Assembly: GCA_030068145.1 (NCBI GenBank)
Contig: JAPJBO010001038.1
Location: 1-64,000, forward strand
Direction of reading: 5' to 3'
Length of the DNA stretch: 64,000 bases
Origin: Diplonema papillatum
Lineage: Eukaryota
Shown: one piece after another, positions 1,501-40,554 of the stretch
Position numbering within the stretch: the first letter of the stretch is position 1
How the letters are laid out: each line of letters begins with the position of its first letter
Notes under the pieces: generated by a model
Seen by the model: only the letters and a program-made list of their open reading frames with translations
The model's database searches: none
Told to the model about the DNA's origin: nothing
Made by a program: the position numbers and the translations under genes

Positions 1501-1552
1501 GAAGAAGTTCATGGCGCGATACCCTCATCGCATTGGGAGGGAGGGAGGGAAC

Positions 1553-13699: not shown

Positions 13700-14580
13700 G
13701 CCCGTAGATTTGCGCCAGGTCTCCGGTTGACCATTGAAGAGGTGTATGGTGCAAGAGTTTCATGGACTCCTACGCTTGGAAAGGTCCCGTTACACATCTA
13801 TTCACAGCAGCAAAAACTGATCCTTTCTGCCGTACACGCGGGGGACCTCGTTGCCTCGGTTCCCGGTGCAGCTTCCGTTTCCGCGGTCGCGTGCCACTCT
13901 CTTTCTCTTTTCTAGAGTTATAGTTCGCTTGAGAATCCGGGATTTTAGAGTCTCCGGGTGACCTTGTCGAATGGGTTCTTTTAAAGCTAATACGTACTGG
14001 GTGGGTTTGGGGGGGCATGCATGACTTCTTTCGTGTACACTTTATTTGCTTGCTGACAAGTTAGGTTCGTATCAATTTGTGGTATAAGCTCCTGCCTTGT
14101 GACGTGTGCTGCGTAGTCCAGACGAAGCACACGTAAATCTGGGGTTGGCGGCGGGCGTAAGCGTTCGACTGAAAAGACTACATTCCTCGAAGGAATGCAC
14201 TTGGTTTTGGTCACGAACAGTCTCGGACATGGCTAGCCTTTACTCAAACTGAAGGTTTACACCTAAGAAACAACCCGCACCCACATAGCCCTTGCTTGCT
14301 CTACGAGAACCCATTTAACGAAGGCAAGTCATCCGGAGACCTAAAATCTCGGAATATCAAGCGAACTTAACTCTATGAAGGGAACAGTTTGCAGTGTTGT
14401 ATGCTCCCCCATGTAGCCTTCGTCGCAATAAGCACCGGGCGGCCCCTCCGAATGTTTCTTGTCGTATACGATCGAAGATAGATGGTTGATCCTCCACAAG
14501 GGACACATATTTAGAGTGCAAGTTCGCTTAGGGATCCGGGGTTTTGTAGTCTCCGGGTGAACATTGTCATAATAAGGTAT
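13700..14580. repeat. Cluster of short dispersed-repeat modules (...GAGTTAAAGTTCGCTTGA.ATTCCGGG.TTTTAG.GTCTCCGG.TGACC...) in both orientations.
   Basis: Related copies at 13915-13995 (+), 14215-14380 (-), 14505-14575 (+). Further copies at 19925-19990 (-) and 42960-43040 (+). Confidence 0.6.
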
Positions 14581-14924
14581 AGTATGTTAGTGTGCGTATC
14601 GGATCTGCTGTAGTGGCAGTACGTGTACTCGTGCGTGTATCTTTGTTGCGGAGAGAAGCCCTGGGACTGCTAAGGCAAGACGAACCACCTCACAGCTTTC
14701 AGGCCAAAGGAGGGGGGCGATGCCGACGACGTGGGCGCACGCAAGGCGCTCGCCACCATCGGGAAGGCGGGGCGGGGCCCACACTCTTTGGCTTGTATTG
14801 ATGCTCTCGGGAAAGGTCAGCGCGGTGCCGATGATCACGAGAACACGTAAGGTGGGTGGGAGAGGCACCTGTATGAACCACGTACTTGTCATGCGTATGA
14901 CACGTAAGAACGTGATACGAAAGG

Positions 14925-15200
14925 TGCTTGTAAAATACTCGAGGGACTGCCTTGTGCTCATTTCTACGGAGGCTAGTGGGGGAGAAAACAATACAACTAC
15001 TAGGTGGGCTCTTTTTAGAGTTAAAGTTTTTGTTGAACGCTTACGCCCGCCACTAAACCCAGATTTACCTGTGTTTCGTGTGGGCTACAGCACACTTACC
15101 TCCCAGATTTACCTGTGTTTTGTGTGGGCTACAGCATATTTACCTCCTTCGAGATTTTGCAACTGGCAGTCTCCTCAAGTATTTCCCTTAAGGAATTGCC
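14925..15200. repeat. Dispersed repeat family (~250 bp). Other copies at 26128-26340 and 59890-59970, with an inverted partial copy at 14125-14170.
   Basis: Long near-identical stretches (aatactcgagggactgccttgtgctcatttc...cgcttacgcccgccactaaacccagatttacctgtgtttcgtgtgggctacagcaca.ttacctcc...ctggcagtctcctcaagcatttcc). Confidence 0.7.
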
Positions 15201-15254
15201 TAGGAATTGGCTTGTGGAGGTGATTTTGCCTTGTTTTTTTGCATTCTGCAGCCA

Positions 15255-15773
15255 TTATTTCAGCCTAAACGAGCGTCCGACCACGTTTCCCGCCCTTTCG
15301 GAGCGTTTTATGGCACCTGAGTGGTAGGTTTCAAGTTTAGGGCTTCTGGCTTGCGTATACAAGAAAGGTAATACCTTGAGGATGTGCGCGCCCAGATCGA
15401 TGCGGATGGCTTCGTAGGCTGAGAAGAAGCGGTACGGGAAGAGCCGGCTTTTCGTGACCTGCTCCGGGTTGCGAAGGCGATCCTGCACCTTTTTGTGGTG
15501 CGCGGCGCTGATCCCGGACAGGATGAAGTTCCGGATGTTGCGGACCATCGCCATGAACGGCAGCGGCGGCGACATGTCGAGCAGCTTCTCCCACGTGTCG
15601 GCCGTATTGCCCTCCTTCGCCAGCATCACCTCCCACGTGTCCGGCACGTCCAACTTCATCCTCTTCCCCGCGCGTTCCCCGTCGAACTCATGCGTTGCAG
15701 CGAGTCCAGTCTTCTCAAACTCACCCTCGGTAGTCGGGTATCGCTGGCCTGTAATACACATGACGTGGTACAC
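15255..15773 (-). CDS. TROVE-domain middle block of the Ro60/TEP1-like gene.
   Basis: 'LLDMSPPLPFMAMVRNIRNFILSGI...RLFPYRFFSAYEAI' matches the conserved Ro60/TEP1 TROVE core (LLxxLPxxALLRNLGKM...HPFHILIALETY). The ORF track start is GTG. The flanks have acceptor-like TGTATTACAG|G and donor-like CTCAAG|GTATTA. Confidence 0.5.
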   Translation of the reverse strand: MYHVMCITGQRYPTTEGEFEKTGLAATHEFDGERAGKRMKLDVPDTWEVMLAKEGNTADTWEKLLDMSPPLPFMAMVRNIRNFILSGISAAHHKKVQDRLRNPEQVTKSRLFPYRFFSAYEAIRIDLGAHILKVLPFLYTQARSPKLETYHSGAIKRSERAGNVVGRSFRLK

Positions 15774-16213
15774 GGGCTTCTCTACGTGCAGAGATCGGAT
15801 CAGCCGCTTGATCGTGTAAACCCGGGCGGTCAGCGCGTCGTCTGAGTCGTCTCCACCTCGGAGCTGCCCTGTGTTGTCGGCAAGGGGTAAGGGAAGGTGT
15901 AAGCAGGCCTTACATTCAGCATGCTGAACGTACTGATTTCAGCACGTTAATTTTCTTAGTTTCTTTTTTGTACACATGCTGAATCAGTACGTGTACACGT
16001 GCTGGAATCAGTACGCTATCAGCACGTGCTATCTTTTCTGCAGATTCATCTGGGGAATCACAACCGCAGTAACGGCAGCTCCTGCTGTTGCTTACCACCG
16101 CGACACTGGAGGGTTGAGGCCGGAGAGGAGGCAGAGGCAAAGACATGCCACACTGGCAGGTGAGCTCCCTACGGCCACACTGGCAGGTGAGCTCGCTACG
16201 CGCGAGCTCCCTA

Positions 16214-16443
16214 CCATGCAGGGTCAAAACCTTGTGTCTTTTTGGAAATGGCCAAAAAAAAAAAATTCAGGAAAAAAATGGGTTTTTTGAATTTTAAAAG
16301 TTTGGAACAAACTCTGCAGTAATTTTTGAGGAAGTTGAGCAAAAAAAAAAATTTCCAAAAAAATTTTTAGGGCTCCATCGGCCCCGCGGGAGCGTTTTAA
16401 TAAGACACAAGGTTTTGACCCTGCATGCTACGTTCTATTTCTG
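16214..16443. mobile_element. MITE copy 1 (~225 bp): TIR CATGCAGGGTCAAAACCTTGTGTCTT, TA-flanked.
   Basis: Perfect ~26-bp terminal inverted repeats. AT-rich internal region with poly-A runs. Flanking TA on both sides. Confidence 0.8.
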
Positions 16444-17018
16444 TTTTTGCCTGACCCTACGTACTGATTATCAGTAGGTATTTAAAGAGCTGCGTAAGCC
16501 CTGGGTGTGAGGTGCAAGGGCGAAGCGTGGGTGCCGCGCGTTTTGGCTGCACGAGTGCAGAAAAAGTGGTCGAATGCTCGTTTAAGCTCGAAGAAAGGCC
16601 GCAGGATCCGAATTCAAGGAGAAATCACCCTCCGTAGTGTCATTCCCTAGAAACCCAAAAAAAAACAGCCACAAAACGAGCCCGACTAGCATCCAACCCT
16701 CCAGGGTACCCAAAAAACATCCGGGGAGTCCCCGAAAACTTGCTCTAGAACGGTGCGGGTTGAAGAAACGGCCAGAAAATGTCCCACCCCACGGGTAAGC
16801 TACGGCCGCAGCTTGCAACCCTGTCTCCTGTGCTGCCGCCGTCGCCAACGATCTAGCCGAATAAATGTACGTCAAAAATATTTTCGGAAAGAACTCCCAC
16901 ACGCCAAATTTTCTTCCGGTTTCCGCTTATTCTTCAAACACGGCAAGAATGAATGCTGGCGTTGGGGTAGAGTAGCCGCCGCTTTGTGCGGATGCTTCGT
17001 GAGTTCAGTGTTCAGTGT

Positions 17019-17435
17019 TCAGTGTTCAGGGTTCAGCTTTTCAAGTGTTGGGTGTTGTTGGTAGTCCGGACGCACGAAACGAGGCATACCACTGGCAGTA
17101 AAGTTTGGGTTGAACTGGTCGTCGAGCTCTTCGAGGGCGTCGGGGCTGCTGGCGACTTCCTGGCGCTTCCGCTTCTTGTCCTTCTGCTTCTTCCGCAGCA
17201 TTCCCTTTTCCTTGTCGTGCTTCGCGAGCTGGTACGCCGAGAAGTCAGGGAACTTGTCCACCAGCGCTTTCCGCAGTGAGGTCGGCAGCCCCTTCGTGGC
17301 AGCTTCCGCGTTTTTCCTGTGGGTGTTGGGATGGTGTCCAGAATCTACAGATCTCCACAACCGGATATCGACCCCGAGGATGGGCTCAGGAGGTGTGGGT
17401 ACCCGATATGGGGGTATGTGGGGCCGGTATACCAC
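17019..17435 (-). CDS. Hypothetical small basic protein (K/R-rich).
   Basis: 138-aa minus-strand ORF lying between MITE copies. No recognisable domain. Could be spurious. Confidence 0.2.
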   Translation of the reverse strand: MVYRPHIPPYRVPTPPEPILGVDIRLWRSVDSGHHPNTHRKNAEAATKGLPTSLRKALVDKFPDFSAYQLAKHDKEKGMLRKKQKDKKRKRQEVASSPDALEELDDQFNPNFTASGMPRFVRPDYQQHPTLEKLNPEH

Positions 17436-17445
17436 CAGTGTGTAT

Positions 17446-17580
17446 AATGCAGGGTCAAACCCTTGTGTCTTTTTGAAAATGGCAAAAAAAAAATTCCGGA
17501 AAAAAAATGGGTTTTTTGAATTTTAAAATTTTGGAACAAACTCTGCAGTATTTTTTGAGGAAGTTGAGCAAAAAATTTTA
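17446..17580. mobile_element. MITE copy 2 (left half only, 3'-truncated).
   Basis: Left TIR and internal sequence match copy 1. No right TIR. Confidence 0.6.
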
Positions 17581-17994
17581 TTTCCCTTCACTGTGTTTGC
17601 GACGCAGCGGTCGAAGCGTTCGAATGGTCAGAGAAAAAATAGCAAGAGGTAAGTTCTTGGGATTTTGTGTAGGGCGCAAGGCGAGCGCCGGGACCCGTGG
17701 ATTCACACAGGCCACCTTGCTCCAGGGAGGGGCACGGGCTGCCTAAATTTTCACGAACTGTCCAGTTCAGATCCGCTTTGGAGAGGACGCGCCATATAAC
17801 ACGCAGCGACGACGGGTACTCATTTTGCGTGGCGCCCTCTTCCGTGTGCAATCACGCGGAAGGAAACATCAGACTTCAAAAAATGCTTGTGACCTGCGGG
17901 TCAAGAAAAAAGACGTCGCAAACCACAGGAAAAGGGAAAAAGAGGTGTGTACGGGTGGTTACCCGTTTGTGGCAGGATAATAAAAACCTTCCGG

Positions 17995-18116
17995 AAAAAG
18001 TCTTCGTGTTTTTCCTCTCGAAAAAAAATTCCGAAAAAAAAAAATTGGGGTCCATCGGCCCCGCGGGAGCGTTTTAAAAAGACACAAGGTTCTGACCCTG
18101 CATGGTATAGCACACC
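17995..18116. mobile_element. MITE copy 3 (right half only).
   Basis: Internal sequence (...ggggtccatcggccccgcgggagcgttttaaaaagacacaaggttctgaccctgcatgg) with the right TIR. Confidence 0.6.
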
Positions 18117-18263
18117 CCGTATACACCACCACACCACGTAGGTATCCGATTCATCGAGGGAATCCTTGAGGCACCTAAACGTACAGGGTACTTGGGTTGG
18201 TTTCTTTGTGCCGAAGTAGAATTCCTGTACACACCCATCATACGGTACGGTGTAGTGTATATA

Positions 18264-18489
18264 CCATGCAGGGTCAAAACCTTGTGTCTTTTTGAAAATG
18301 GCAAAAAAAAAAAAAAAAAATCCGGAAAAAAAATTGGGTTTTTTGAATTTTAAAATTTTGGAACAAACTCTGAACCTAATTTTTGATGACGTTGAGCAAA
18401 TTTTTTTTTTTTCCAAAAAATTTTGGGGTCCATCGGCCCCGCGGGGGAGCGTTTTAAAAAGACACAAGGTTTTGACCCTGCATGATACG
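18264..18489. mobile_element. MITE copy 4 (full length).
   Basis: Both TIRs present, TA-flanked. Confidence 0.8.
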
Positions 18490-18705
18490 TACTGCACAGC
18501 GAGTGCATACTGTGTGTATAGGTGGTCCCATTATGGTCCTCAGGACCTCTGATGCCTGGAACCGCCTATGTGGCCGGTGCGGCCCATGAAACCAGTCAAT
18601 TGACGAAAGTAGAGCCAAGACATCCACTGATGAGTGCAATTGATGTCACCCTCGATCAGCCGCAGTTGAGTTGAGGGGAACAGCTGGTTTGCCTCACCTG
18701 CCCCT

Positions 18706-19533
18706 TCAATGCTCGTGATTCTCGCTTTCTTTCGCGAGTGTGTAGGGATCCTCGGTTTCCAATCTGTTTGAAAGTCGTTTCCTCCTTCCATTCGGAATCG
18801 AAATTCTCGGTGATACCCTGCTGCAACGTTGAGTACTGAAAAGAAATGCGCAGTCTTGTGAAGAAAACTGCCCCCCAGGTTCGAAAGATCGAGGACCCCG
18901 GGTGCTGATCGGGGTGCCGATCGATAGCAAGATGAGCGGCCTACGGGGGGGGCCAGCTGCACACCTTCTGACAGTCAGCCAGAGTTCCGCAAACTGAGCA
19001 ACCTGAACCCAGTCGGTCGGCAAGACGATGATGCGGGGGATGTAGGCGCGGAGGTATGGGGCGCACGCGGGGGTGACGGCAGCGAAGGCCGCGAGATAGT
19101 TGCTCGTGGCCCGGATGTTCAAATCGGCGCGGACGTAAAGCGCGAGCTTCAGCAGGAACTCCGGAGAAGTCTTCGCGACCTCGGCCGCCAACCGGTTGAT
19201 GCCGGCGATCTGGCCCGTCGTCACCGTCCCTTCGTCGTACCGGGACTCTCGGATCATCATCGCGCACACCGACGTCAGCAAGCGGTGCTTCGCCTCTCGG
19301 ATGCGCTGCCCTTCTGGCGCCATCGTTGAAAGGCTCCCGTTGGCTCTGCCTTTTTTTTTTTTTTTGGTTCGTTCTTTGCCTGTGGGGGTGTTTGAGATTT
19401 GCAAATTACAGTGATTCTGAGGATATTCGCGCGTTAGATTGATGATGTGCAGAGCGAGGCTTGGCAGGAATTCCGGCGACGGTTTTTCCTTCGTGGTTCC
19501 GGGACTCCCGTGACCAACATCGCACAACTGCAC
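18706..19533 (-). CDS. TROVE-domain N-terminal block of the Ro60/TEP1-like gene. The conserved part is ~18950-19320; the rest of the ORF looks non-coding.
   Basis: 'EFLLKLALYVRADLNIRATSNYLAAFAA...LPTDWVQVAQFAELW' matches the Ro60/TEP1 TROVE N-terminus (FLxRLAIYSRxELNIR...). A 230-bp shared upstream module and motif lie just 5' of it. The MITE cluster lies just 3'. Confidence 0.5.
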   Translation of the reverse strand: MQLCDVGHGSPGTTKEKPSPEFLPSLALHIINLTREYPQNHCNLQISNTPTGKERTKKKKKGRANGSLSTMAPEGQRIREAKHRLLTSVCAMMIRESRYDEGTVTTGQIAGINRLAAEVAKTSPEFLLKLALYVRADLNIRATSNYLAAFAAVTPACAPYLRAYIPRIIVLPTDWVQVAQFAELWLTVRRCAAGPPRRPLILLSIGTPISTRGPRSFEPGGQFSSQDCAFLFSTQRCSRVSPRISIPNGRRKRLSNRLETEDPYTLAKESENHEH

Positions 19534-19589
19534 CAGGGGGCAGCTTATGATGCGTCGTTCTCCGGTTTGAGTTCTCTTCGCGGCCTTTA

Positions 19590-19813
19590 TTTTCTAGCGT
19601 TATTTGTGGATTAGACGGTCGGTGGTTTAAAGCCTCCGGTTGACCGTAGAGGCTTGGGTATGGAGGGGGTTGAGAAAAGTGAGAGAGGGTGCCGCTCGTT
19701 TCGGGTGATGTGTCACTCCGTTGTGAAACCTTGTGAAGTCCCCTAACGCGTGTAGGGGGTGTTTGGGATTGGGTAGGGTGTGGTCGTTCTGCTACGGCGT
19801 GAAAGCCGTTTCG
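19590..19813. repeat. ~225-bp module, near-identical to 29600-29833. Both copies lie immediately 5' of minus-strand ORF starts.
   Basis: Near-identical over >200 bp (...gggtatggagggggttgagaaaagtgagagagggtgccgctcgtttcgggtgatgtg.cactccgttgtgaaaccttgtgaagtcccctaacgcgt.tagggggtgtttgggattgggtagggtgtggtcgttctgctacggcgtgaaa). Confidence 0.8.
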
Positions 19814-20164
19814 TTGTTTTTGTGTTAACAATGCATTGTTGGTACTAAAAATTAGTAGCTGGCAGCGTACGCTTGCCAAAGCAGGTGAGTTGCGCTAGTG
19901 CGCACAAACAAAAAGAGAACCCATTCATGAACGGTCACACGGAGACCCTAAAACCCCGGAATTTAAAGCGAACTTTAACTCAGAAAACTTCGTTTAAATA
20001 TTCCGGGGCTGAAAAATGACATCGTGATCCACTACCGATACCGTCGCAGTCCACTGCTGGAAACGATGCCGTCTCAGGATGGAGGGAAATCATTTTGGCT
20101 CCCACGGCTCCTCTCTCACGTATCATCAAAGATTATGGGTTCAGGGGGGAGTACATTCGCAAAG

Positions 20165-20245: not shown

Positions 20246-20499
20246 TTTTTGTACTAGGTCAGGACGACGTCGCATTTGTGCAACCTCCTGCGAGCGTTTA
20301 ACCACGTCAGGCCAGCGGGAGCAAGGACGTTGTCCGAAGACGCCGACACTTACCTTTCGCTGACGATGCCGCGGGTCACCTCCTCAACTCATTCCTATCC
20401 TGGTCGATCCGAGCAAAACTGAGGCAGCCGGCATGCCGTCTCGCAACAGAAGCTTGGACGATCCGAATAGGTCCAGACGTCTCAACCATAAACCCCTGT

Positions 20500-20875
20500 G
20501 AAGGAGCAATGATTAAGATTTGAACGCATCTCCAACTCTTACCACTCATCGGTTTCAGGGACTTTTAACCCTCTTTTCAAAGTTATTTGCATCTTTCCAT
20601 CACTGTACTTGTTCGCTATCGGCCTCCGGGAGATATTTAGCCTTAGCAGAGGGATACCTGCCGATTAGCTCAGCATTCCCAAACTGAGCGACTACCAGTA
20701 GTGTAGTTAACCAACATGGCTCGTCGAGGAAATACGGGACTCTCACCCTCCCATTCCAGGAGACTTACCTCGACGCCAGTTGTGTTCCCAAGCAGCTTGC
20801 GCCACATTCCGGATATCCGTAGAACACCTGTTCAGGCTTGGGTTTTGCCCTGTTCACTCGCCGTTACTAGGAGCA
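20500..20875 (-). pseudogene. Degenerate LSU rRNA 5'-end fragment (first ~380 nt), in opposite orientation to the SSU fragment.
   Basis: Minus strand reads TAGTAACGGCGAGTGAACAGGG...GTTTGGGAATGC...GGCTAAATA...CCGATAGCGAACAAGTACAGTGATGGAAAGATGCAAATAACTTTGAAAAGAGGGTTAAAAGTCCCTGAAACCG. This matches the LSU 5' domain with many substitutions. Confidence 0.5.
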
Positions 20876-21594
20876 TGGGAGCTTGAGGCTGCATGTACAG
20901 CGACACTCTTGCGTGGAGGGAAATGTACCCGACCTATCATAGAAGCCGGTAAGAAGCCAGCGCAAACCCGGCAGGAGCCGCTGATCTTCGCCGTTTCTGC
21001 CGCCGCGACGTTTTTCCACGAGCCCGACAGGACGAGAAGAGTGAGGAGGAAGGGCAGAGCAATATGCAAGGCGCCGGCCACTTGTTGTTCTCGCGGTGCT
21101 TGTCTTCTTTTTTCTTTCTGCTTTCGTGCCTTTTTATTATGAAAAAAAAGGTTCCGGGGGTATCGACTGAGGAGGATGGCAAAACAAGGTTGGACGACGC
21201 GTCCGTGAATTTGCCGAGGGCAGGCGGTCAGTGTTGCACATGCTTGCACGACGTCCTTCGGTCCTCTTCGCTAATCGATCACTCTCGACACTGAGCTGCC
21301 AACATGAGCTCGGTAGAGGACACGGTACGAATAGAATCGGGATCGAGCGTTCGGGATCTGAACAGCGACGAGAGGATCACATACGCTTGGGGACAGATCT
21401 GCTGCGCTTGAAGTATCTGTGGGCTTGGCTTTGGCATGGCTGACGGTGACTTTGGCTTTGCTGGCTTGGGGCTTGACCTGCGTGTGGCGACTGAGCGTAC
21501 ACCAGCAGCATGTTTTTTGCAAGAACTCGTAGACACGGGATGCGATGAGCAGGAAGACAAAGCATTCCCGACAACGCCTGTCAGCATGTTTTCG

Positions 21595-27505: not shown

Positions 27506-27624
27506 CCTTATACAAAAAAAAAAAAAGCAGAAACGGTGAAGATGATAATTGTCACAGGGTTGGTGAAATGAAAGCGAGAATGTGTCCCAAAAACCCTCTT
27601 TCTCTTTCTTCTCCCTCGCCCTTT

Positions 27625-29584: not shown

Positions 29585-30449
29585 GGCTCCCCCTGTAGTT
29601 TGGGTTCTTTTAGCTTTTATTTCAACTTATTTGTGGATTGGTTGGTCGGTATTTTAAAGTCTCCGGTTGACCGCAGAGGCTTGGGTATGGAGGGGGTTGA
29701 GAAAAGTGAGAGAGGGTGCCGCTCGTTTCGGGTGATGTGCCACTCCGTTGTGAAACCTTGTGAAGTCCCCTAACGCGTTTAGGGGGTGTTTGGGATTGGG
29801 TAGGGTGTGGTCGTTCTGCTACGGCGTGAAAAGCCAGGAAGTTTCGACGCTAATCTCCGACTCTTGATTATGCTCACCGGGTTGCGTGCTCGTCAGGAAG
29901 ATTCCGGTGCCTGGCTTTTGTTTGCATCAGCCCCCCTCACGACGGGTGGGTAAAAATATTAGTTTTAGGTTCAGGCAGGACACTCATGCATGTTTGATGC
30001 TGGCATCAAGTCTTCTTCGAAGAAAATGTAAATAGAAAAACAGAAATGGAAAAAGGAGAGATAGTGATCCGTCCGAAACGAACTTATTGGCACATGTTTC
30101 TCATGAGAGAAGTGCTGGTCGTCGTAACACGTTCAGTCGTCTGATTTCTGCTTCTTGCACAATAGTGTGGGGGTTGCATTAGAACGTGCTTGGAACTGTT
30201 TTGTGCTCAACTCCGCACCGCTCCGACCTGTAGTTCTGTCTTTTAAGCCACGGACGCATAAGGCGGCGGACCATCATCAGCGCGGAGCCTCAGTGTCTGC
30301 AGACACAGGACAGCGAGTCTGGCTTGTCAGGCGGGAGCTGCCGCCACAGCCAGGACCACCCATGCTACGATACGAGAGCACAGGAAAATCCGTCACGGGG
30401 AGAAGGTCCCTACTACCTGTGGCAGTCGACGAAGTGATTTGCAGGATGG

Positions 30450-31583
30450 TTAAAGATAAAACATTAGTGTCGCCCGAGGGGGGGGTAATCTCAGGGCGCG
30501 GGCGTACCACGGATTGTATGATGTATGTATGGAAGAGGACAAACCTGAAGGCACCGGGGCGCTTGAAGGGTTTGTGATGGCGGGCTGCGAGCGGACGGGG
30601 ACGGGCGGCCGGTTGGCGGTGTTCGCGGAGGACGCCGCTGTGCCTGTAGTTCCGTTCGTGGCGTCGGCCGCCGCGAGCTCGGCGGTGGCCGGCATCGCGA
30701 CCGTGACGCTGAAGGTTGGCGGCGCCGAGCAGAGGGCGGCGTGCACCGCGTCGCTGTGGTCCTGCACGGCCTCCCGCCCGATCTTCAGGATCGCCATCCC
30801 CGCCGTCAGCCCAGCCGTGTCCGCGGGGGCCCCCGGCACCACCTCGATGATCTCGATGCCGCGGAACCGTACGCCGATGGCACCCTCCGGGTTCTTGGCT
30901 ATGGTGAAGGTCCTGCGCTCGCGCGCGTTTCTGGCCTGCTCCTCTCTGTGCCTCTCCCGGGCCCGTCGCAGGGCGTGGCGCTGGTCGCGGTCTGCCTTCC
31001 TGCGCCTTTGGTCGTTCTGCGAGCTCGCTGGGTGGGTGGTTAACTCCCTGCAGAACGGGCACTCAACCTTGCCCGAGCTGCAGTGCACACACTCAGGCGG
31101 GACCCCCGGGATGGCGCACCGGCAGGTCTGCGCCCACGTCGCGAAGCAAGACTGGCAGATCGAGTGCGAGCACGGGTCAAGCGTGACGCCGTCACGCAGG
31201 CCGCCCATGCAAATCGCGCACTCCGGCCCGCTCGCCGTGCTCGTCACCGTCGCAGGCGTCTCCGGAACGCCCAGCGCGGCCTCCTGAGGGCTGCGGCCTG
31301 GTTCTTCGAAGGTAGGCATTCTGCTTCTTCTTGTCTTCTTTTTTCTGCTGTTTGTCGCGCGGGGCCGTGGGTAGGGGGGTGTATCCGCTCCTCTCCCTGG
31401 ATTTAGAGTTTCGTTCGTGTTGTAAGCCTCCGGTTGACCGTTGAGGCGGGATTGGGTGAGGAAACCTCCACCTTCGAGAACACGCAGTTTGGGGAAGGTT
31501 GAGTGCCCGTTCTGCAGGGAATTGACCACCCACCAAAGTTGAGTACCTGTAGGTAGGGACAGAAGGAAGCGCATTGGGTCCAT
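30450..31583 (-). CDS. PDZ-domain plus RING-finger protein (putative E3 ligase). The true start is probably the ATG at 31317-31319 (MPTFEEP...).
   Basis: RING: ECAICMGGLRDGVTLDPCSHSICQSCFATW...ECVHCSSGKVECPFC. PDZ-like: GVRFRGIEIIEVVPGAPADTAGLTAGMAILKIGREAV. The recurring upstream motif sits ~105 nt 5' of the ATG. Confidence 0.6.
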   Translation of the reverse strand: MDPMRFLLSLPTGTQLWWVVNSLQNGHSTFPKLRVLEGGGFLTQSRLNGQPEAYNTNETLNPGRGADTPPYPRPRATNSRKKKTRRSRMPTFEEPGRSPQEAALGVPETPATVTSTASGPECAICMGGLRDGVTLDPCSHSICQSCFATWAQTCRCAIPGVPPECVHCSSGKVECPFCRELTTHPASSQNDQRRRKADRDQRHALRRARERHREEQARNARERRTFTIAKNPEGAIGVRFRGIEIIEVVPGAPADTAGLTAGMAILKIGREAVQDHSDAVHAALCSAPPTFSVTVAMPATAELAAADATNGTTGTAASSANTANRPPVPVRSQPAITNPSSAPVPSGLSSSIHTSYNPWYARALRLPPPRATLMFYL

Positions 31584-31707
31584 CCATGCGCGCCTTTAAT
31601 TAGAAGACAAGGCATTTGGCTACCTTGAGAGAGTCACGGTTACTCCTGCCGTTTACCCGCGCTTGACCTGATCTCTCAGCGTTGACATTCAGGGCACTGG
31701 GCAGAAG

Positions 31708-32271
31708 TCACATTCCACTTGCCACCGCTGTGATGAAGATTCCTCTCATTCGTAACAGTTCCAAGCTGACACTTCGTTGTGGGCACAACATGCAAGAAGG
31801 CCTGGAAGAAATCAGGAGCCGCGGGTAGCACGTCCTAGTAGGACTGATGCAGAACCGCTGCCAGTCAGAAGCAAGAAGATCGCCTCTGTCAGATCGCCCT
31901 TGATGCCCACCCACCTTGAGTGCGTGAACGGCATGGCCCTTCTCCCCTTTGGGGTTGTGAACCAGTCGATGACAACCTCGTCTCTCTTGACGAGAAGGAA
32001 GTTCGCCGACAAAAGATTCGACACCACCGTCCACCTTGACGCCGTCTTCCACGCCACCAAGGCCGCGAGACAACCGAAACGCACATGGCGAGCCACAAAC
32101 AAAAAAGCACAGGATTGTGTGCGGACATGTCCAGGCAAAAACATCGGGGAGTCGAAGAAGTGTCGAGGAGTTCCGGGGAACTCGCCAGGAGCCCGGACCA
32201 GAACATCGGTGGGTACCTTCGTTGCTGGTCGTTGGCGGTTTCCGCACTTTACCCGTGATAGTCTTCAGCAT
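31708..32271 (-). CDS. Hypothetical protein.
   Basis: 187-aa ORF with a true ATG, ~45 nt downstream of a copy of the upstream motif (32331-32350). No recognisable domain. Confidence 0.25.
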   Translation of the reverse strand: MLKTITGKVRKPPTTSNEGTHRCSGPGSWRVPRNSSTLLRLPDVFAWTCPHTILCFFVCGSPCAFRLSRGLGGVEDGVKVDGGVESFVGELPSRQERRGCHRLVHNPKGEKGHAVHALKVGGHQGRSDRGDLLASDWQRFCISPTRTCYPRLLISSRPSCMLCPQRSVSLELLRMRGIFITAVASGM

Positions 32272-33600
32272 GGTGCAGTTTTTAGCGTTTGTTGTGGTTT
32301 AAAGGTTCGGCGGTTTAGGATCTCCGGTTGACCATTGGCCGGGAGTCGGTAGACGGATTTGCACACTTTAACTAAGGCTGTTTCTCCGTTGCGCCGTCGG
32401 ATGTTGAGTGGTGCGAAACCTCGAAGATTATCAAGTCACACGGGCCATTCTGAAGAGGGTGTGTTAGCTGCCGTCGGATAACTGACGGGAGACTCCACCG
32501 GCGAGCGACGGAGCCGAAGTCCTTCCCCCTTCTAACTAGCACTTGAGCCGAATGCCAGATGGAGAAGCTGGCAACCTCCCACGCCCTATCCGTCCCCCGA
32601 AGGAACTCGCCCCACCCACCCTTCAGAGAGGAATTGGAGCTGGCGTCATCTGGCCGGAAGTATGGAGGGTGTGCACTCGTTCATCTCGCCACCTAGAAGA
32701 ACATTCCACCCGGAGCTGATGCCATGCGCGAGGAAATACGAGGGAATGGGGAAGCACTGCGTAGTCAGTTGCACTGCGATGCCTACCTGAAGAAAACAGT
32801 GCCAAGCCAGCGGTGCAATACGTCGACTCCCGACGGAGGTCGCCGATTGATGAGAAGTCGAAAAAGGTCGTCGGGCTAGGAGACTTCGATACGTTTTGTG
32901 GCTGTCTGAGCATTAACAAACGGGCTCCGGGAGAAGCAGGCACAGGGCTGCGGATACGTTTTCGAGCCGGTCCAGAGCAATACGCGGAAATATGACGTGC
33001 TAGATTGTGATGGACCGGGAAGAAGTGTCAGCATGCCGAAGCCACCGGTGTTCATGTGGTCCCCTTCAAAAAGAAACGACCTGCATCATCCGGGGCTTGT
33101 GGACATGGTCAACAGGATCGTCGATGTGTCACCACTTCAGATCTCTGCATCCGGGTTGCGGAGTGTGCACGCATTCCCTTTCGGCAATCCTGCACGTCCG
33201 AGCAAGCTCGTCCGTGGCAGCTTTGAGGCGAGCGATTACACCTTGCCTTAGGACCGACTGACCTGGTAGACTATGGAAAAAGAGCAGACTCGTTGGCTCG
33301 TGTTCCAGACGGGCAGAAGGCTGCTGTATATACGGCACGAGTCTGCAACGACATGAGCCTGAAAGTGTATCACGTTAGGGGAACAACAACGTCCGGAGTG
33401 CCCCTCGCTGACGATGCAATGGCATATGAACGCACACTTGAAGCGGTGCGGGAAGCTCCGTTGAACCGGTCAGTCATTACCCCGGTTTGACAGTGCGGAT
33501 TAAGAGAGTGACCGGCCAAAGACCGCGACCTTTCGGTCAGTTTTTTGCGGTTGAGAGAGGTGCGGTCAATGCCAAAGCACAAGAGGACGCGACACGGCTT

Positions 33601-35562
33601 TCACCAATCGGACTTGAACGTTGAGTAGCCGGGCCAGTCGTCTTTGATCGTGTCGATGAACTCGGGTGTGTCCTTGCGGGGTCGAACGACGTCTTCCGAC
33701 GGGTGCTCGACGTGCGTTGCGTAGCGCGCGAGCCGCGGCGCGAACTTGCGGAGGAGAGATCCCTCCGGCGCTTGCTGGAGGAGGTCGTAGACGAGCGTGT
33801 TGAAGGGCAGGTCCATTTTCCCGTAGGCCTTCTCCTGCGACACGAAGTGCGAGTGCACCGCTACGACCGGCGCCCCGTCGAGCAGCAGCGAGTTGCCGCC
33901 GGCGCCGAGCGCCAGCCGCTCCTCAGCGAAGTCGCCGGCTTGCCACCAGTTCGGCCGCGACTGCTTCTCGAGGCGCAGGTCCGGGGTCCACCAGCCGACG
34001 TTCCACTGCGGTTCGAGTTTGAATGCTCCCTTTTGGGTCGTGATAGCCACGTCGACCGGGCCCTGGTCGAGGTACATGCTGGGCATCCCCTGGTAGTACG
34101 CGATGTCCTGCGTCGAGTGCTCGAAGCGGAGCATGGAGTCTACCCACGCCTTCAGCAGCGGACTGCCCCGCGCGGCGTACACCACGCCGGTGTTCGCGTA
34201 TCCCTGCAGCTGGGCCATGTACCCGGTGCCCCAGCCCCGGGGATCGTGCATGCCGACGCCGAACGTCGCGGCCGCCGCGTCCGGCATCAGCGGCAACGGC
34301 CCGACCAAGAAAACGTCGGCGTCGAGCCAGAGGGTCGTCCTGTGGCGCTCGAGGACCTGCTGCATGAGGTTCGGCTTCTCGTGGAACCAGAACGGCAACC
34401 CCGGCGTCTTCCGCAGCGGGATGATCTCGACGTGGAGCCCGCGGTTCTGCAGCTTGGCCAGCAGCGGCTCGTGCTTCTGGCGTGTGTGCACGTCGATCCC
34501 GATGTAGAACGGCGTTTCCGGTGCGAACACGCGGAGCGACTCGAACAGGATCAGCAGGTGCGCGCCGACAAACTCACCGGTGACCAACGTGCAGACGGAC
34601 TCGATTTGCGTCGTGCGCGTTCCGAGTTCGCACCCCCACGGCAGGCTCGCCACGTTGCACCCCATGACGTTCATGTAGTTCGGATTCGACTGTTTTTGGA
34701 GCAGAGCGCGCGGGTACTGCGAAAGGTCGCACGACAGCTCGGGCAACTTCGCCGGGCACTCGGCCGCGCCGCCGTGCGCAGCGTCCGGTGCAGCATTCGC
34801 CTTCGCCTGCTTGCCGCCGGGCGCCCTTTTGCCGGCGCGCACGACGACGGCGGGGGAGTACGGGTCAGCGATGCACCTCGGGTACCACGTGTATCCGACG
34901 CCGCACCGGTCGCACGCGGCGCCGGCGAAGCCCGGTTTGCACGCGCAGTTCGGCGCCCAGCCGCCGCCGGACCCCTTCAGCCCGAAGGTCACCGCATACG
35001 CGTTCCCGCTGCAGTGCCGCAGCGTAGTGTACAGCGGGGGCCGCGCTGTGACGGCCACCTCAAGCTCGAGCACCTGATGGTTTCCTGGGCAAGGTCCCTC
35101 CCCGAACGTGGCCTTGTCCGCAACCACGCTCTGCCCCGCCGCCAGCCTCTTCGCAGTCGTGAGAAGCAGCGGCTTGTCGGTGACGTCCCACAGCCGCGTG
35201 CATTTGATAGGTTCCGCGTAACAGTGCCGCGTCGCCTCCTCTTTCCCGAAGTGCAAGACAGGGCACGGGTTGGCCTCCTGACCCCCGCCCCACCGCACGG
35301 CGATCACCCGGCCGACGACCCCAGGCGCGAACGCGATGCTGGCCCCGTCCTCGAATTCGAGCACGACGTGGTATTCCGCGGCGGGTGTGCCACCCGCCTC
35401 GGCCGGCCGCTGAGGGGCGCTGCCGGCGGCCGCCGGCCGCTTGTCGTCGACGGCGCACGGGACCTGCTGCGGGCACGGCTCGGCGGTCCGGGCCTCGTGG
35501 AAAACGGCGTACAGGGTGACGACGACGCAGGGCACTGCCAGCAGCGCCCAACGCGACTTCAT
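33601..35562 (-). CDS. Secreted or Golgi protein. It has an N-terminal signal peptide or anchor, a laminin-type EGF-like Cys-rich module, and a C-terminal nucleotide-diphospho-sugar transferase-like domain with a DxD motif.
   Basis: MKSRWALLAVPCVVVTLYAVF (hydrophobic N-terminus). CACKPGFAGAACDRCGVGYTWYPRCI (EGF-like). LWLDADVFLVGPLP (DxD) in a region resembling Nucleotid_trans/GT77-like folds. The upstream motif lies ~110 nt 5' of the start. Confidence 0.6.
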   Translation of the reverse strand: MKSRWALLAVPCVVVTLYAVFHEARTAEPCPQQVPCAVDDKRPAAAGSAPQRPAEAGGTPAAEYHVVLEFEDGASIAFAPGVVGRVIAVRWGGGQEANPCPVLHFGKEEATRHCYAEPIKCTRLWDVTDKPLLLTTAKRLAAGQSVVADKATFGEGPCPGNHQVLELEVAVTARPPLYTTLRHCSGNAYAVTFGLKGSGGGWAPNCACKPGFAGAACDRCGVGYTWYPRCIADPYSPAVVVRAGKRAPGGKQAKANAAPDAAHGGAAECPAKLPELSCDLSQYPRALLQKQSNPNYMNVMGCNVASLPWGCELGTRTTQIESVCTLVTGEFVGAHLLILFESLRVFAPETPFYIGIDVHTRQKHEPLLAKLQNRGLHVEIIPLRKTPGLPFWFHEKPNLMQQVLERHRTTLWLDADVFLVGPLPLMPDAAAATFGVGMHDPRGWGTGYMAQLQGYANTGVVYAARGSPLLKAWVDSMLRFEHSTQDIAYYQGMPSMYLDQGPVDVAITTQKGAFKLEPQWNVGWWTPDLRLEKQSRPNWWQAGDFAEERLALGAGGNSLLLDGAPVVAVHSHFVSQEKAYGKMDLPFNTLVYDLLQQAPEGSLLRKFAPRLARYATHVEHPSEDVVRPRKDTPEFIDTIKDDWPGYSTFKSDW

Positions 35563-35672
35563 GGCCGGGCGTGGGTGAGGAGGGCACCCGTGGGAGGGGG
35601 CGGGGGGAGGTGCCAGATTTTGTGCCTGTTTTTCCGGCGTTTCTTGTGGTTTAGAAGTTCGGTTTGATAGGG

Positions 35673-35693
35673 TCTCCGGTTGACCATTGAGGC
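35673..35693 (-). promoter_or_regulatory. Example of the recurring upstream motif (plus-strand TCTCCGGTTGACCATTGAGGC) ~110 nt 5' of the 33601..35562 start. Other copies at 13729-13750, 19633-19653, 29658-29680, 31426-31448, 32331-32350 and 40074-40100.
   Basis: Seven same-orientation copies. Five lie 45-140 nt upstream of putative minus-strand gene starts. Confidence 0.35.
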
Positions 35694-36249
35694 TGTGAGA
35701 CGGGTAGTATGAGGGATGTAGGCATGATTACACACTTTAACTACGGCTAGCCAAGTGTGTAAGTGTTGCGACCGACACACGTGAGCAGCGTGTTTGGGAG
35801 AAGATTAGCCCATATGCACTTACTATCGTTCACTAGCAGGCTAATCCTCCCCCGGCACGTGCAAACAAACACACGCCTATTATTTTTCCAACGTGGGGGG
35901 GGGTGATGTACTCAACACCCCCGACACGTACTTCCCCCCGAAAGTACTTTCCACCCCCCCCGAAAAGTACTTTCCACCCCCCGACCAAAAAATTCCACCC
36001 CCCGAAAAGTACAGACGGAGACCCGGGAACGTGCTCGCAGCACTGGACGCGGAGCTGTTCTCTAAGTATTGCGCAGGAGCATAGTGCACAGGGTGGCGCT
36101 TAGCAGCCAGTACCGCAGGGACAGTTGGGTGGATGCACTGTGCAGGAGCAATGTGGTCTACTTGGTCGAGGCTACAAGGAAAGCAGGCAGTAAGACCCAT
36201 GAAAGGCCGACGCATGCAGCAACCGACGCGTACTCTCCACTTCGATTGC

Positions 36250-36790
36250 CAAACTCATGACACGCAAACAATCTCTGTGTACAAGAACTACCTCGCTCGG
36301 GCGAGGTGGCCTCTCGTCTCGCGTTTCAAGGCTATGGCATGCTTGATCTTGCCGGTAACGCCCAGTACTGTGCAATGCGCTTCATGGCCGCTGGGTGAGA
36401 GTGCGGTAGTTGCTGCAGATGTTTCAAATGAGCAAGACCGCGGGAGACAGGATCTGCTACACGGTAGCGGGTTGCTGTTCTGCACATGCTCTGCTCATTC
36501 GAACATTTCCAGGCAAGATTCTGCTTCCCCGTTCACTCGAACCAGAGCAAGAGCCGCGTCAGGCCAAACGAGTGCTCGGACGCATTGGGGAAACAAGTAC
36601 CCATTTCTATTCTCACACAAACAATCTCCGCGTACAAAAACTACCTCGCTTGGGCTCGGCGGTGCGATTGCTCTTGAACTGGCGTGCCTCTCGTCTCGCG
36701 CTTCAAGGTTATGGCATGCTTGATCTTGTCGGTAACGCCCAGTACTTACTGTGCAATGCGCTTCACGGCATGCGCTTCACGGCCGCTGGG
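36250..36790. repeat. ~370-bp tandem duplication (2 copies).
   Basis: 36230-36420 closely matches 36590-36800 (caaacaatctc.g.gtacaa.aactacctcgct.ggg...cctctcgtctcgcg.ttcaagg.tatggcatgcttgatcttg.cggtaacgcccagtact...). Confidence 0.7.
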
Positions 36791-37599
36791 TGAGAGTGCT
36801 TCCGGCATTTCGCTGTGGCCGGACGCGGTTCGTTCAGGCACTCGTTGGAAAACTGCGCGCAGAGCTAAAAGGTGAAGCGGGGCGAAGGGAAAAAAAAGGC
36901 GCGGTATTGGAAGTCCACCAGCCGGGACGCGGAACTTTGGGGAAACAATCTGGAGGCAGAAGCAACCCTGGACGACGGAATGTGTCCTCGCGCACGATTC
37001 ATGCGCGGTGTGGACCGATGGCCGAGGGTCGCGCGAGTTGGAACCTCTCTGCACGGATGCTGCCCTTCGTGGGGCACCGACTCGGAGAGGTGACGTGACT
37101 CACCGGTCACCCAAGCAGTGTGCAACACTGGGGTCTGCATTGTGCCCCCGCTCGCGCTACCTCTAACCAGGAGGGGGTTAAAGTAAGATTTTTTAAAAGC
37201 TCTATTCCCGGGTCACCAGGTAGCCACCCAGTGCCCAACGCAGGCCATCGCTACGGATACACTGCATTCTAACCTCAACTACTCTAGGTTCTCCCGGGTT
37301 TTGCCGTCAGATCCGCTGGCTCTTTTTAGTGCAGCATGGCGGTGCAGAGAAGTGTACAAGCCGGTTCCGTGCTGGGGCGAATCTCGCCTTTTATTTCCAA
37401 AACCCGGTTTTTAAGGGGGGGGGGGGGGGGTAGGGTTGGTTGTATTATGTATTATTCGAGACTGGAGGTCCTATGAACATGCAATGTGAATAGCCTCTAT
37501 TCGAGCCAACCCGGCTTTTCTTGCAACAATTATGAAACCGTATTGTTTTTGGACTGGATAATAGTTCAGAGCAAGCTTTTTCCCCTTCTGGGAAAATGC

Positions 37600-37675
37600 A
37601 CAGGGGCGGCAGAGTGAGCGGGCGCCGGCCTTCAGGCCGGTCGGCCCGGGTTCGAACCCCGCCCGTGACATTTTT
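37600..37675 (+). ncRNA. tRNA-derived Pol III element (A box and B box plus T5 terminator). No cloverleaf. SINE head, or a tRNA-like promoter element of the kind found divergently upstream of small-RNA genes in trypanosomatids.
   Basis: A-box-like GGCGGCAGAGTGA at 37606-37617. Perfect B box GGGTTCGAACCC at 37649-37660. TTTTT at 37671-37675. No consistent acceptor or anticodon stems. Confidence 0.35.
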
Positions 37676-37689
37676 CCGGTCGGGGATTG

Positions 37690-38880
37690 TTTTCGAGGTT
37701 TGCTGCGTTCCGGGGTCTAATGTGCCCGAAATTTGCGTTTTTTGCGGAGTTTCTCAGTATCTCGCGGTATTTGGGTCACCCCGTCGCCCCGGGAGAGGGC
37801 CGGCGGGGGGGGGACGGGCGGGAAAAGGCTGCCGCAAGGGTGCGGCGGGGCCTCCCGGGTACGAGCGCCAAACTTTACCCGTGCTCGGTGGGTCCGAGGG
37901 GTGTCCCCCCCGGGTACCAGCGCCAAACCTTTCCCGTACTCGGTGGGTCGGGGGGGTCCGGGGGGGGTGTCCCCCCCCGGGCACGAGCACCGACCTTGAC
38001 TTCACCCGGACTTTACCACCCTGGCCGAACTTCGCTTCGTGCCCGAACTTTTTTCAGTACCAGCGCAGCCTGAGCGCTTAGCACCAGAACTTAGCAACGC
38101 CCGAACTTAGCATCACTCGAACTTAGCTTCACCAGAACTTAGCATTGCCCGAACTTAGCTTCGCCCCGAACTTTACCTGCTGCCTCCAGTCTCGCCACGC
38201 GCCGGCCTTAGCCGAGCGCACGTACTTTGTATTATTGTATTATTGTATTTTTGTATTATTTGTATTATAAAATCTGCTGTTTTATAATACAAATAATACA
38301 AAACTGGATGCAAGCCCTGACGCTGCAGCCCGAAGCTTGGTGGGCCATGGTGGGTGGACTCTTGAAGTCTGAGGGGGGATCGCTGTTGGGTGAAGCTGTG
38401 CCGCGTCGTGCCCCACACTTGTGCCACAGAGCGGAGCTTCAGTGTAATGGGGCTCACACAAGCCGCTCGGGTCACCTTGCTCCTGAACGCCTGTACAAGC
38501 TGTCCACCTTGTCGCAGTGGCTGGCACCCGTCCACGTCGACAACCCACGGAGACGCAAAAACCAACCGACGGAGAAACACCATCAATGTCGATGTCGATG
38601 AGGGTGGTGAGGTCGAGGGCTGTGAAGACGAGGTGGATGAGGGTCTTGTAGTTGCGGAGAGTGAGGACGAAGAGGGAGATGAGGAAGAAGCGATCTGACA
38701 GAAGGTGTGTTCTTACCGCCCCATGTCCGCCGTGTATTATTGTACTGGTGTATTATTGTGTATTTTTGTATTATTGTATTATTTGTATTATTCGTAGTAT
38801 AAACGGCCAAACCAATAATACTGCCAACCCTATAGGGGGGGGGGGGGGGGGGGGGGGGGGCGGGGTCGACTTATAACAGT
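37690..38880. repeat. Composite low-complexity, Foldback-like block: a 60-bp tandem (37690-38000), a 20-bp 'CCGAACTTAGC..' tandem (38050-38175), GTATTATT hairpin arrays (38225-38295, 38735-38800), and poly-G tracts (37422-37440, 38826-38862).
   Basis: Direct reading. The 20-bp unit is related to the arm subrepeat of the Foldback-like element at 62330-63310. Confidence 0.55.
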
Positions 38881-40554
38881 TGCATCTCCCTTTTAGCCCA
38901 AAAGCGGGTTTTGGAAACCGGGGAACTGGCCCGAACGTAAAGCCTGTCTCTAACATCTACACCCGCCACGGGAAGGCGGTACGACTCCTCGCGTGCAGCA
39001 GAGTGCGATGCTGGGATCAAGTGTGCAATGGGTCTTGAGCCTGAATGTATTTAGGTGAAGCACAGGTGACGTACTGGAATCAGTCCAGAAGAAAAAGTCA
39101 CAATGTGAGCTGTAGAACTTCGTGATGATGTCACTTCTTTCACACCAAAAAAAAAGGTCTCAGGTGAAGCCAGCCAGGTGAAGCCCGCGTCACCTGAACT
39201 TCCACGGCAAAGATAATTAGGGCGGGCAGCGGCTTCATGTCGCAAGACAAAATTTGGCCCGCGATTCCTACCGTGGCTACCCGTCACCACTCGCAAACAG
39301 AGGTGGTGCGACTCATCCACCAGAACCAGCGGAGCGCAGCGCGGGACTCTGCAGCGTGAAAAGACCTCCAAATCGTCTTCTAAGGTGGAGCGGAAAGCAA
39401 GAAAGAAATGGCACCCCTGCTTGCTGGAGTGTATAAAAGACAGTTCCGTACAACAGCTGCATTAGACGCAGCTTGATCCGAGAGCTCGCTAGGAGGTGGC
39501 ATCCCTGATGCACGTTCACCGGTCGACCCGCTTGTCCCGACACGCGTCCGATCTGTTGGTTGTGGGCCCCGTGGCCGCGGCTTCGGCTCCGGCACTCTCG
39601 CGGTGCCCGCGCTCGCCCGTTGGCCGACACTGCCTGGGTCGACACACGCGCTGGTTTCCTTCGACAACGGGGACACCGTCCAGAATCCGCTTCGGGTCGC
39701 CTCCCTGAACCACTAGCGTCTGCCCCTACCTGGCAGGTGCCGACACATCCTCGGGACCCCACTGCACGATCACTCCTTTGTCCGCCATACTCCGGAACAC
39801 ATCCGACGCCAGGTCCCCCTCACTGCCCCCACGAGGATACCACTCGCGCCACAGAGTTCCGCTTTGTTCTTGCACTCCTTCGTTGAGGAAAGAAGCCAGA
39901 GAGGGCTGAACTTACTGCGTATGCCCACACTCGTGGGAGGCCTGAACGTGCTCGTCCGCAGCGTGCATGTTAGACAACACCTGTTTGGATCTGGATACAA
40001 CACAATACGCTTTCAATCATAACTTATTATAGCGTGCAGGAATTTGAACTTGGTGTGCCAAACAAGTGTTTTAGGGTCTCCAGTCGACCATTCAGGGAGA
40101 CGGGTAGTGAAAGGGATGCAGACGTAATTACTACGGCTAGCCATGTTCTTGCTGACGATTTTCTCCGACAAAGAGGACGGGAAGCCCAACTTTTTCGTAA
40201 CCTCGAATGGGAACGGAAAAAGGGACGCTGAGAGACGGCGGCCCGGGCGGCACCGATCCCCGCGCACAACAGCAGGCAGTGACGCTTTTTGACGTACTGT
40301 GCACGCATGCCCCGTGACTTCTTTTGGGGTCTCGAGTGGCACCAACAAGACGCTTGGCGAGCTTCCTGACAAGACATGATGTCCTGGTCTGATTGGAGGC
40401 GTGTGCTTGAAGGTGCGTATATTCATCTGCAGGAATGCTTGAAGTGTCCACTTGTGGCAGGGAAAGGTACAGAATTACCCAGCGGTGATGTCTGGGAGAT
40501 GCAAGATCGTCTTCAAAGGGAGCCGAGGACCAGTTTCAAGATGTTACCTGTACA

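Follow-up and report, generated by a model that had tools for sequence, protein, structure and literature searches.

A single-orientation motif of a short dispersed repeat in a Diplonema papillatum gene cluster, with a possible link to splice acceptors

Diplonemids are among the most abundant marine eukaryotes, and to our knowledge no cis-acting signal has been described for the formation of their mRNA 5' ends beyond the AG dinucleotide. Here we analyse a recurring 21-nt motif in a 64,000-nt stretch of Diplonema papillatum DNA (assembly GCA_030068145.1, contig JAPJBO010001038.1, positions 1 to 64,000; hereafter the window), in which all the recognisable genes lie on the minus strand and form a unidirectional cluster. 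The recurrence of the motif is genuine, and so is its fixed orientation. The motif is part of a family of short dispersed repeats and does not mark gene starts in general. Three of its seven copies are found just upstream of exon starts, and from this position we tentatively infer that the copies form part of 3' splice-acceptor regions, in a manner that would resemble the SIRE repeat of Trypanosoma cruzi.

The 21-mer TCTCCGGTTGACCRTTGAGGC has five matches with at most two mismatches in the window (13720, 19633, 29660, 31427 and 35673), all on the plus strand, where shuffled sequences gave an expectation of 0.01. The exact 12-nt core CTCCGGTTGACC occurs at the same five sites and at 32322, and the degenerate copy, at 40078, has two mismatches in this core and is still recovered by a profile search at E=1.6e-4. 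These seven copies, five 21-mer matches and two weaker ones, carry GGTTGACC on the plus strand and are referred to as A-type. An earlier note on this DNA had proposed that all seven share one orientation, and indeed they do (7/7, two-sided binomial 0.016), running in the same direction as the minus-strand genes. Four of the positions given there move by 1-10 nt (13729 to 13720, 29658 to 29660, 32331 to 32321 and 40074 to 40077), and the stretch said to precede each copy (GGTTTAAAG or TTTTAGGG-like) is present in five of the seven. The 21-nt core is an imperfect palindrome (GCCTC..CGG TCAA CCG GAGGC) that contains a CpG-bearing CCGG. The A-type copies are:

35673..35693, minus strand: core of a full copy of about 35628-35725, reading GCCTCAATGGTCAACCGGAGA in the gene sense
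31427..31447, minus strand: core with diverged flanks, about 31378-31481
29660..29680, minus strand: core of a copy of about 29614-29714, or 29627-29831 with the A2 flank (see below)
19633..19653, minus strand: core of a copy of about 19587-19687
32321..32341, minus strand: core of a copy of about 32276-32375
40077..40097, minus strand: degenerate core of a copy of about 40031-40124, with an upstream flank in common with the copy at 35673
13720..13740, minus strand: core only, in intron 3 of the TEP1 homologue

A search with nhmmer, using a profile built from the longer repeat block, found 13 family members in the window (E from 2e-18 to 2e-4), namely the seven A-type copies and six B-type copies, which carry GGGTGACC or variants of it. 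The block common to the copies in the repeat search is 49-65 nt, and full copies have about 65 nt in common, running on the plus strand from TTTYTAGMGTT... to ...CTCCGGKTGACC. The motif is thus the best-kept core of a repeat that is 60-100 nt long, as the earlier note had anticipated in placing it within a longer dispersed repeat seen at 13915, 14505, 42960 and 19925; these sites correspond to the B-type copies that begin below at 13909, 14508, 42975 and 19919 (the last inverted). Two further B-type copies, at 14328-14375 and 42084-42151, complete the set. Four of the six B-type copies have the A orientation and two are inverted, so that 11 of the 13 family members are oriented alike:

13909..13984, minus strand: B-type with GGGTGACC on the plus strand, A orientation, in TEP1 intron 3
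14508..14578, minus strand: B-type, A orientation, in TEP1 intron 3
14328..14375, plus strand: B-type, opposite orientation, in TEP1 intron 3
19919..19987, plus strand: B-type, opposite orientation, 92% complementary to the copy at 42974-43044
42975..43052, minus strand: B-type, intergenic
42084..42151, minus strand: diverged B-type, intergenic

Conservation within the family is uneven. Pairwise comparison of independent A-type copies gave average identities of 81% for the 21-nt core, 38% for the downstream flank (45 nt) and 28%, the random level, for the 40 nt on the gene-upstream side, and the copies at 13720, 31427 and 40077 retain little beyond the core. Homology between A-type copies stops about 55 nt past the core and so does not reach the start codons. 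Two pairs have flanks in common, over 162 nt at about 98% identity for 19633/29660 (the A2 pair) and over about 60 nt for 35673/40077; the family is therefore mosaic and its copies are not all independent. In the A2 pair the near-identical tract (19645-19807 against 29672-29834) lies on the gene-upstream side, and on the opposite side of the core the identity falls to about 76-82% over 45 nt. This pattern suggests a recent duplication, or a conversion tract, that ended at the core.

The position of the copies relative to exons was judged against the following gene models:

33601..35562, minus strand: DIPPA_17694, single exon, 653 aa, product exactly KAJ9443974.1
28799..31319, minus strand: DIPPA_17697, RING-PDZ protein with an RE-rich tail, 523 aa when spliced, exactly KAJ9443973.1
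30545-31319, 29593-30544 and 28799-29592, minus strand: exon 1, intron and exon 2 of DIPPA_17697
18985..19323, minus strand: first coding exon of a TEP1 (TROVE) homologue, ATG at 19323
near 17294-17196, 15821-15393, 10876-10121, 8684-7842 and 6204-6040, minus strand: later exons of the TEP1 homologue

The cluster further contains an ABC gene (ATG 48810) and a gene for cystathionine beta-lyase (CBL), whose 475-aa open reading frame (ORF) at 56131-57558 on the minus strand is 100% identical to the D. papillatum enzyme and which has its ATG at 57558 and two downstream exons. What had been taken for separate PDZ-RING and RE-rich ORFs are two exons of one gene, DIPPA_17697. Joining the donor at 30544 (CAG|GTTTGT) to the acceptor at 29593/29592 (CTACAG|G) keeps the frame, and the spliced product aligns with homologues of 47-62% identity across the exon junction; these homologues likewise have an RE-rich C-terminal tail ending in ...MP. 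An alternative donor at 30507 was rejected as out of frame. Identity of the spliced product to KAJ9443973.1 confirms the model. Since the accessions of DIPPA_17697 and DIPPA_17694 are consecutive, there is presumably no annotated protein-coding gene between them, and the ORF at 31708-32271 was rejected as a gene, as it has no coding potential, no homologues and no annotated protein. The TROVE ORFs are likewise parts of one multi-exon gene, the TEP1 homologue.

Three A-type copies are linked to an annotated exon start. In what follows, offsets (+n) and distances to an ATG start at the first G of GGTCAACC and run along the gene-sense strand. The copies at 35673 and 31427 precede the annotated ATGs of DIPPA_17694 and DIPPA_17697 (31319) by 123 and 120 nt, respectively, with no ATG in between in either case; counted from the plus-strand start of the motif, the distances are 111 nt (to 35562) and 108 nt. 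The first YAG past the core is a CAG|G in both, at +60 and +43, respectively. The third copy, at 29660, is within the annotated intron of DIPPA_17697, its core separated by 80 nt from the downstream 3' splice site CTACAG|G, and here too the first YAG past the core is a CAG|G (+80), which is the annotated splice site itself (first exon base 29592). Thus the three gene-linked copies have 43-80 nt from the core to the first CAG|G. The other four do not adjoin an exon. The copy at 19633 is 322 nt upstream of the TEP1 ATG, and the copy at 13720 is in TEP1 intron 3, far from the next exon. The copy at 32321 is intergenic, 1.27 kb beyond the DIPPA_17694 stop codon with no gene following, and the copy at 40077 is intergenic with no coding potential downstream. 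All A-type copies are therefore in outron, intergenic or intron sequence.

When seven sites were placed at random in the 48.5 kb of non-coding sequence, 0.09 were expected within 130 nt upstream of the five ATGs, where two of the seven copies are found (P=0.004), and 0.24 when internal exon starts were added, where three are found (P=0.0015); these statistics were framed post hoc on 64 kb, and the pairs 19633/29660 and 35673/40077 are not independent. The association with genes described in the earlier note is supported as an enrichment at exon 5' boundaries. Its count of five copies 45-140 nt upstream of gene starts holds for the two annotated ATGs at 31319 and 35562 and not for the other three: the RE-rich ORF is exon 2 of DIPPA_17697, so that the copy at 29660 is intronic; the start at 31708..32271 belongs to an ORF that was discarded above; and for the TROVE block the TEP1 ATG at 19323 is 310 nt from the plus-strand start of the motif at 19633, with the copy at 13720 inside a TEP1 intron. 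The link to exon 5' boundaries, which rests on three copies and not five, is suggestive.

Two side observations concern the sequence past the core. The first ATG after the core at 19633, at +125, opens an upstream ORF of 28 codons (19520-19434, minus strand). In five of the seven A-type copies an ATG is found 120-127 nt past the core, two of these being the annotated starts; homology stops at +55, and this regular spacing may be due to chance.

In D. papillatum, genes form unidirectional clusters for which co-transcription is presumed, and a 39-nt spliced leader (SL) is added to every mRNA at an AG that is, by a mild preference, preceded by C and followed by G. Introns are present in 41% of genes, and the 5' untranslated region (UTR) has a median length of 66 nt (PMC10161547). 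At diplonemid 3' splice sites the tract is C-rich (in Diplonema japonicum it is A-rich), and diplonemid introns carry CA-rich motifs (PMC12621601). The cis acceptors in our window follow CA-rich tracts that read ...ACACAG|G, with ACAG|G at their end. With the SL added at the CAG|G at +43 past the core at 31427 and at +60 past the core at 35673, the 5' UTRs would be 77 and 63 nt long, against the genome median of 66, and both sites agree with the published acceptor preference and with the local cis acceptors. We consider these two sites the best candidates for SL addition before the two annotated start codons. An AG within or beside the core, at -7 or +12, was rejected as the acceptor, as the annotated acceptor of the copy at 29660 is the CAG at +80 and its AG at +12 is an unfavoured GAG.

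The sense orientation, the three copies located 43-80 nt before a CAG|G and the predicted 5' UTRs of 63 and 77 nt together suggest an acceptor role. We hypothesize that the A-type copies are the acceptor-proximal part of 3' splice sites, acting as a branch-site or A/C-tract region or as a splicing-enhancer site, and that the same repeat-derived acceptor modules could serve both SL trans-splicing and cis-splicing. In the mRNA sense, an A-type copy consists of a variable, often C-rich flank, the core GCCTCAAYGGTCAACCGGAGRC and a 45-nt A/C-rich tail, and the next YAG past the three gene-linked cores is a CAG|G, in one case the annotated cis 3' splice site and in two a candidate SL-addition site. 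The A subfamily is present in one orientation only, and its copies are confined to stretches that do not persist in the mature mRNA, namely spacers, outrons and introns. Among the roles considered in the earlier note, a trans-splice or splice-acceptor function fits best.

Several observations weigh against an acceptor role. Only three of the seven A-type copies are near an exon start, and an annotated acceptor is available for just one of them (the copy at 29660, +80), the SL sites at +43 and +60 being predictions. Even in that copy the 20 nt next to the acceptor, and with them the AG in use, are not part of the repeat. For TEP1 the best acceptor (CCCCCACAG|G) is 62 nt before the ATG and 260 nt past the core at 19633. 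There is no copy upstream of ABC and CBL, two of the five genes, nor at any of the other seven cis acceptors in the window; the element is therefore not a general signal, and a general SL trans-splice signal was rejected. A C- or pyrimidine-rich tract on the upstream side reaches significance in the A2 pair alone; it is borderline in 35673/40077 and absent in three copies, and inspection of the core sequence found no branch-point consensus. The positional statistics carry the post hoc framing and the dependence between copies noted above. For these reasons we favour splice-acceptor participation only tentatively.

Nearly as likely is that the family is a neutral dispersed repeat without function, surviving where it does no harm (introns, outrons and spacers) and in the orientation that leaves RNA processing undisturbed, and such filtering by orientation and location explains much of the pattern. 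The conserved core would in that case be simply the segment common to differently truncated or mosaic copies. Repeats make up 52% of the D. papillatum assembly, with about 10,000 dispersed families (PMC10161547). The B-type copies are found away from exons and in either orientation, four of the seven A-type copies do not adjoin any exon, and the flanks common to 19633/29660 and to 35673/40077 point to secondary duplication. Three core-only copies are what would be expected of truncation that always retains one end, and no covariation supports an RNA structure. Neutrality accounts less easily for the single orientation of the seven A-type copies and for their 10- to 20-fold enrichment just upstream of exon starts, nor does it predict a core that stays 81% identical despite its CpG-bearing CCGG while the flanks are at random-level identity. 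The copies also lack the target-site duplication (TSD), terminal inverted repeat (TIR) or tail that would indicate insertion.

A role in the mature mRNA, as a 5'-UTR control element, as the small-RNA target of a regulon or as the poly(A) or 3'-end signal of the upstream gene, appears improbable. The motif is in the mRNA sense and about 21 nt long, and the genome encodes Dicer, Argonaute and Piwi proteins (PMC10161547). Furthermore, the copies at 32321 and 29660 are 0.8-1.3 kb past a stop codon, near typical 3'-UTR lengths (PMC10161547), and a small sense-strand hairpin in the core is stable in the copies at 19633 (z=-3.2) and 31427 (z=-2.7). However, this hairpin is not significant in the other five copies, and the variable positions show no covariation. 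If SL addition takes place at the first CAG|G, the outron is removed and the core with it. The copies at 29660 and 13720 are intronic and so absent from the mature mRNA, and a poly(A) signal at these places would truncate the transcripts. These two intronic copies thus argue against the promoter-like, 5'-UTR and polyadenylation functions that the earlier note had also put forward.

The promoter-like function belongs to a wider class of DNA-level explanations, in which the motif would act upstream of individual genes, either as a promoter or an element of transcription start, or as the target of a DNA-binding protein that dimerises. The imperfectly palindromic core and the two copies about 120 nt upstream of start codons are compatible with this. 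No motif has been reported near SL sites, in an analysis window of +/-30 nt only (PMC10161547), and a motif 40-60 nt upstream could have been missed by the published logo. Yet two copies are inside introns and two in spacers with no downstream gene, two of the five genes lack the motif, and the genes are thought to be co-transcribed in long clusters (PMC10161547). We consider a DNA-level site very improbable, and a core promoter in particular was rejected, as copies are found in the DIPPA_17697 intron and in TEP1 intron 3.

The proposal that the motif derives from a transposon found no support in the copies themselves, which show no transposon hallmark (no TIR, TSD or tail). No TIRs were found within the copies. 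The head-outward pairs 13909/14379 and 19591/19987 have no matching flanks, and a flank-to-flank comparison of the copies gave longest common k-mers of 6-7 nt, the chance level, again with no TSD. A miniature inverted-repeat transposable element (MITE) or other DNA transposon was rejected on this basis, and a short interspersed element (SINE) or other non-LTR retroposon because the copies have no tRNA by ARAGORN, no Rfam match, no A-tail and no TSD. As Rfam gave no match on any copy at E<=5 and ARAGORN found no tRNA, an origin from an rRNA, tRNA or snRNA fragment was also rejected. The copies are not a relict spliced leader either, since the 3' 23 nt of the SL have no match in the window at up to three mismatches. 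RNAalifold found just four weak pairs and no compensatory change on either strand, and single-sequence folds had a z-score below -2.5 against shuffles in only 2 of 14 cases; with no covariation, and a hairpin that is significant in two of the seven copies, a conserved hairpin or structured RNA element was rejected. A metagenome scan with YCTCCGGTTGACCRYWGAGGC gave four contigs (GC 60-68%) in which the match was limited to the 21-mer, as expected by chance.

The window does contain a MITE family, of about 215-230 bp, in which perfect TIRs of about 30 nt enclose an A/T-rich middle (TACCATGCAGGGTCAAAACCTTGTGTCTTTTT ... AAAAAGACACAAGGTTTTGACCCTGCATGGTA), in contrast to the TIR-less motif repeat. 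Its copies, some of them partial, are at 16213-16430, 17442-17600, 18021-18107, 18270-18487 and 54793-55011, and all five are intronic (TEP1 introns 1 and 2 and CBL intron 2). A MITE-like origin has been proposed for diplonemid introns (PMC12621601).

The window contains several other repeats. The only three Rfam matches are 28S rRNA fragments (LSU_rRNA_eukarya, 105-148 bits) at 20492-20901, 31579-31706 and 60237-60379, all on the minus strand, in spacers and away from the copies, one being located between the copies at 32321 and 31427; such scattered fragments fit the thousands of rRNA gene pieces reported for the D. papillatum genome. Within TEP1 intron 3, a 632-bp unit is repeated about four times at 100% identity (10999-13566), ending about 120 nt ahead of the opening of the exon-4 reading frame; the motif copy at 13720 lies 166 nt upstream of this array in the gene sense. 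The array resembles the gene-flanking repeats described in the D. papillatum genome paper (PMC10161547). An LTR-type retrotransposon (long terminal repeats; 1547-6028, minus strand; gag-like region 4816-5778, pol 2081-4879) has inserted into the TEP1 homologue, immediately past the exon at 6204-6040. Its 230-nt terminal repeats are 100% identical (1547-1776 and 5799-6028), and its gag protein has an exact annotated match on 10 contigs. Near the end of the window, arrays of a 20-nt satellite (CGAATTTAGTGATGCAGCGC-like) at 62350-62800 and 62900-63300 form a large inverted repeat with arms of up to 129 nt that are 83-95% complementary, and a 10-nt-periodic tract at about 49.1-49.6 kb (49100-49600; GGCCAAAAAT type) has a similar inverted-repeat arrangement.

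A stronger version of the splice-acceptor reading, which we regard as rather unlikely, is that the family is a mobile or duplicating module of about 65 nt whose 21-nt sequence is recognised by the spliceosome or a splicing factor, so that a landing in the sense orientation would create or strengthen a 3' acceptor for SL addition and for cis-splicing alike. Sense landings would then define new mRNA 5' ends inside polycistrons, as well as new intron ends, and the motif would be the first gene-proximal cis-element described in diplonemids. This would give repeats a route to reshape gene boundaries in a genome without per-gene promoters. A repeat-borne element 40-80 nt upstream of acceptors would offer a handle on how trans-splice sites are chosen and on repeat-shaped gene boundaries. 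If the family is instead neutral, it would be an example of orientation filtering of repeats inside polycistronic units.

Repeats that come to be used as splice sites are known from other systems, which we compare here by description only. In Alu-derived 3' splice sites and in introner or MITE-type elements, one orientation supplies the tract and the AG used by the spliceosome, a likeness to the proposed role of the A-type copies; here there is no TIR or TSD, the copy makes up about 100 nt of a 952-nt intron and the AG that is used is just outside the repeat. The Ur element of Caenorhabditis elegans operon spacers, a stem-loop with a U-rich motif, is present in nearly all SL2 spacers. Like our motif, it is a short element in the sense strand of a polycistronic precursor, placed some tens of nt ahead of an SL trans-splice site (a predicted one in our case). 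The motif in D. papillatum differs in occurring at a minority of genes, in being present in introns as well and in having a hairpin that lacks support. The trypanosomatid retroposons that share a 79-bp signature (ingi/RIME, L1Tc/NARTc, DIRE and LmSIDER) also combine a short conserved segment with otherwise unrelated copies, and they too are degenerate short copies spread across the spacers of directional clusters. SIDERs differ in being about 550 bp long, with an A-rich end and TSDs, and in residing in 3' UTRs, whereas our copies have no A-tail or TSD and are upstream of exons or intronic. LmSIDERs have been exapted for post-transcriptional control, which shows that degenerate short repeats in euglenozoan spacers can be put to use (PMC2323293).

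The closest known precedent would be SIRE, a VIPER derivative in T. cruzi, which like the family described here is a dispersed non-coding repeat in the spacers of a polycistronic, SL-trans-splicing euglenozoan. Vazquez et al. reportedly found in 1994 that SIRE supplies the 3' trans-splicing acceptor for some P2-beta genes. SIRE is about 430 bp long and derives from the ends of a tyrosine-recombinase retroelement, its structure being described as VIPER termini (PMC6681497), whereas the repeat here is 65-100 bp with a 21-nt core and no known parent, its host is a diplonemid (Diplonemea) and one of its copies is at the acceptor of a cis-intron.

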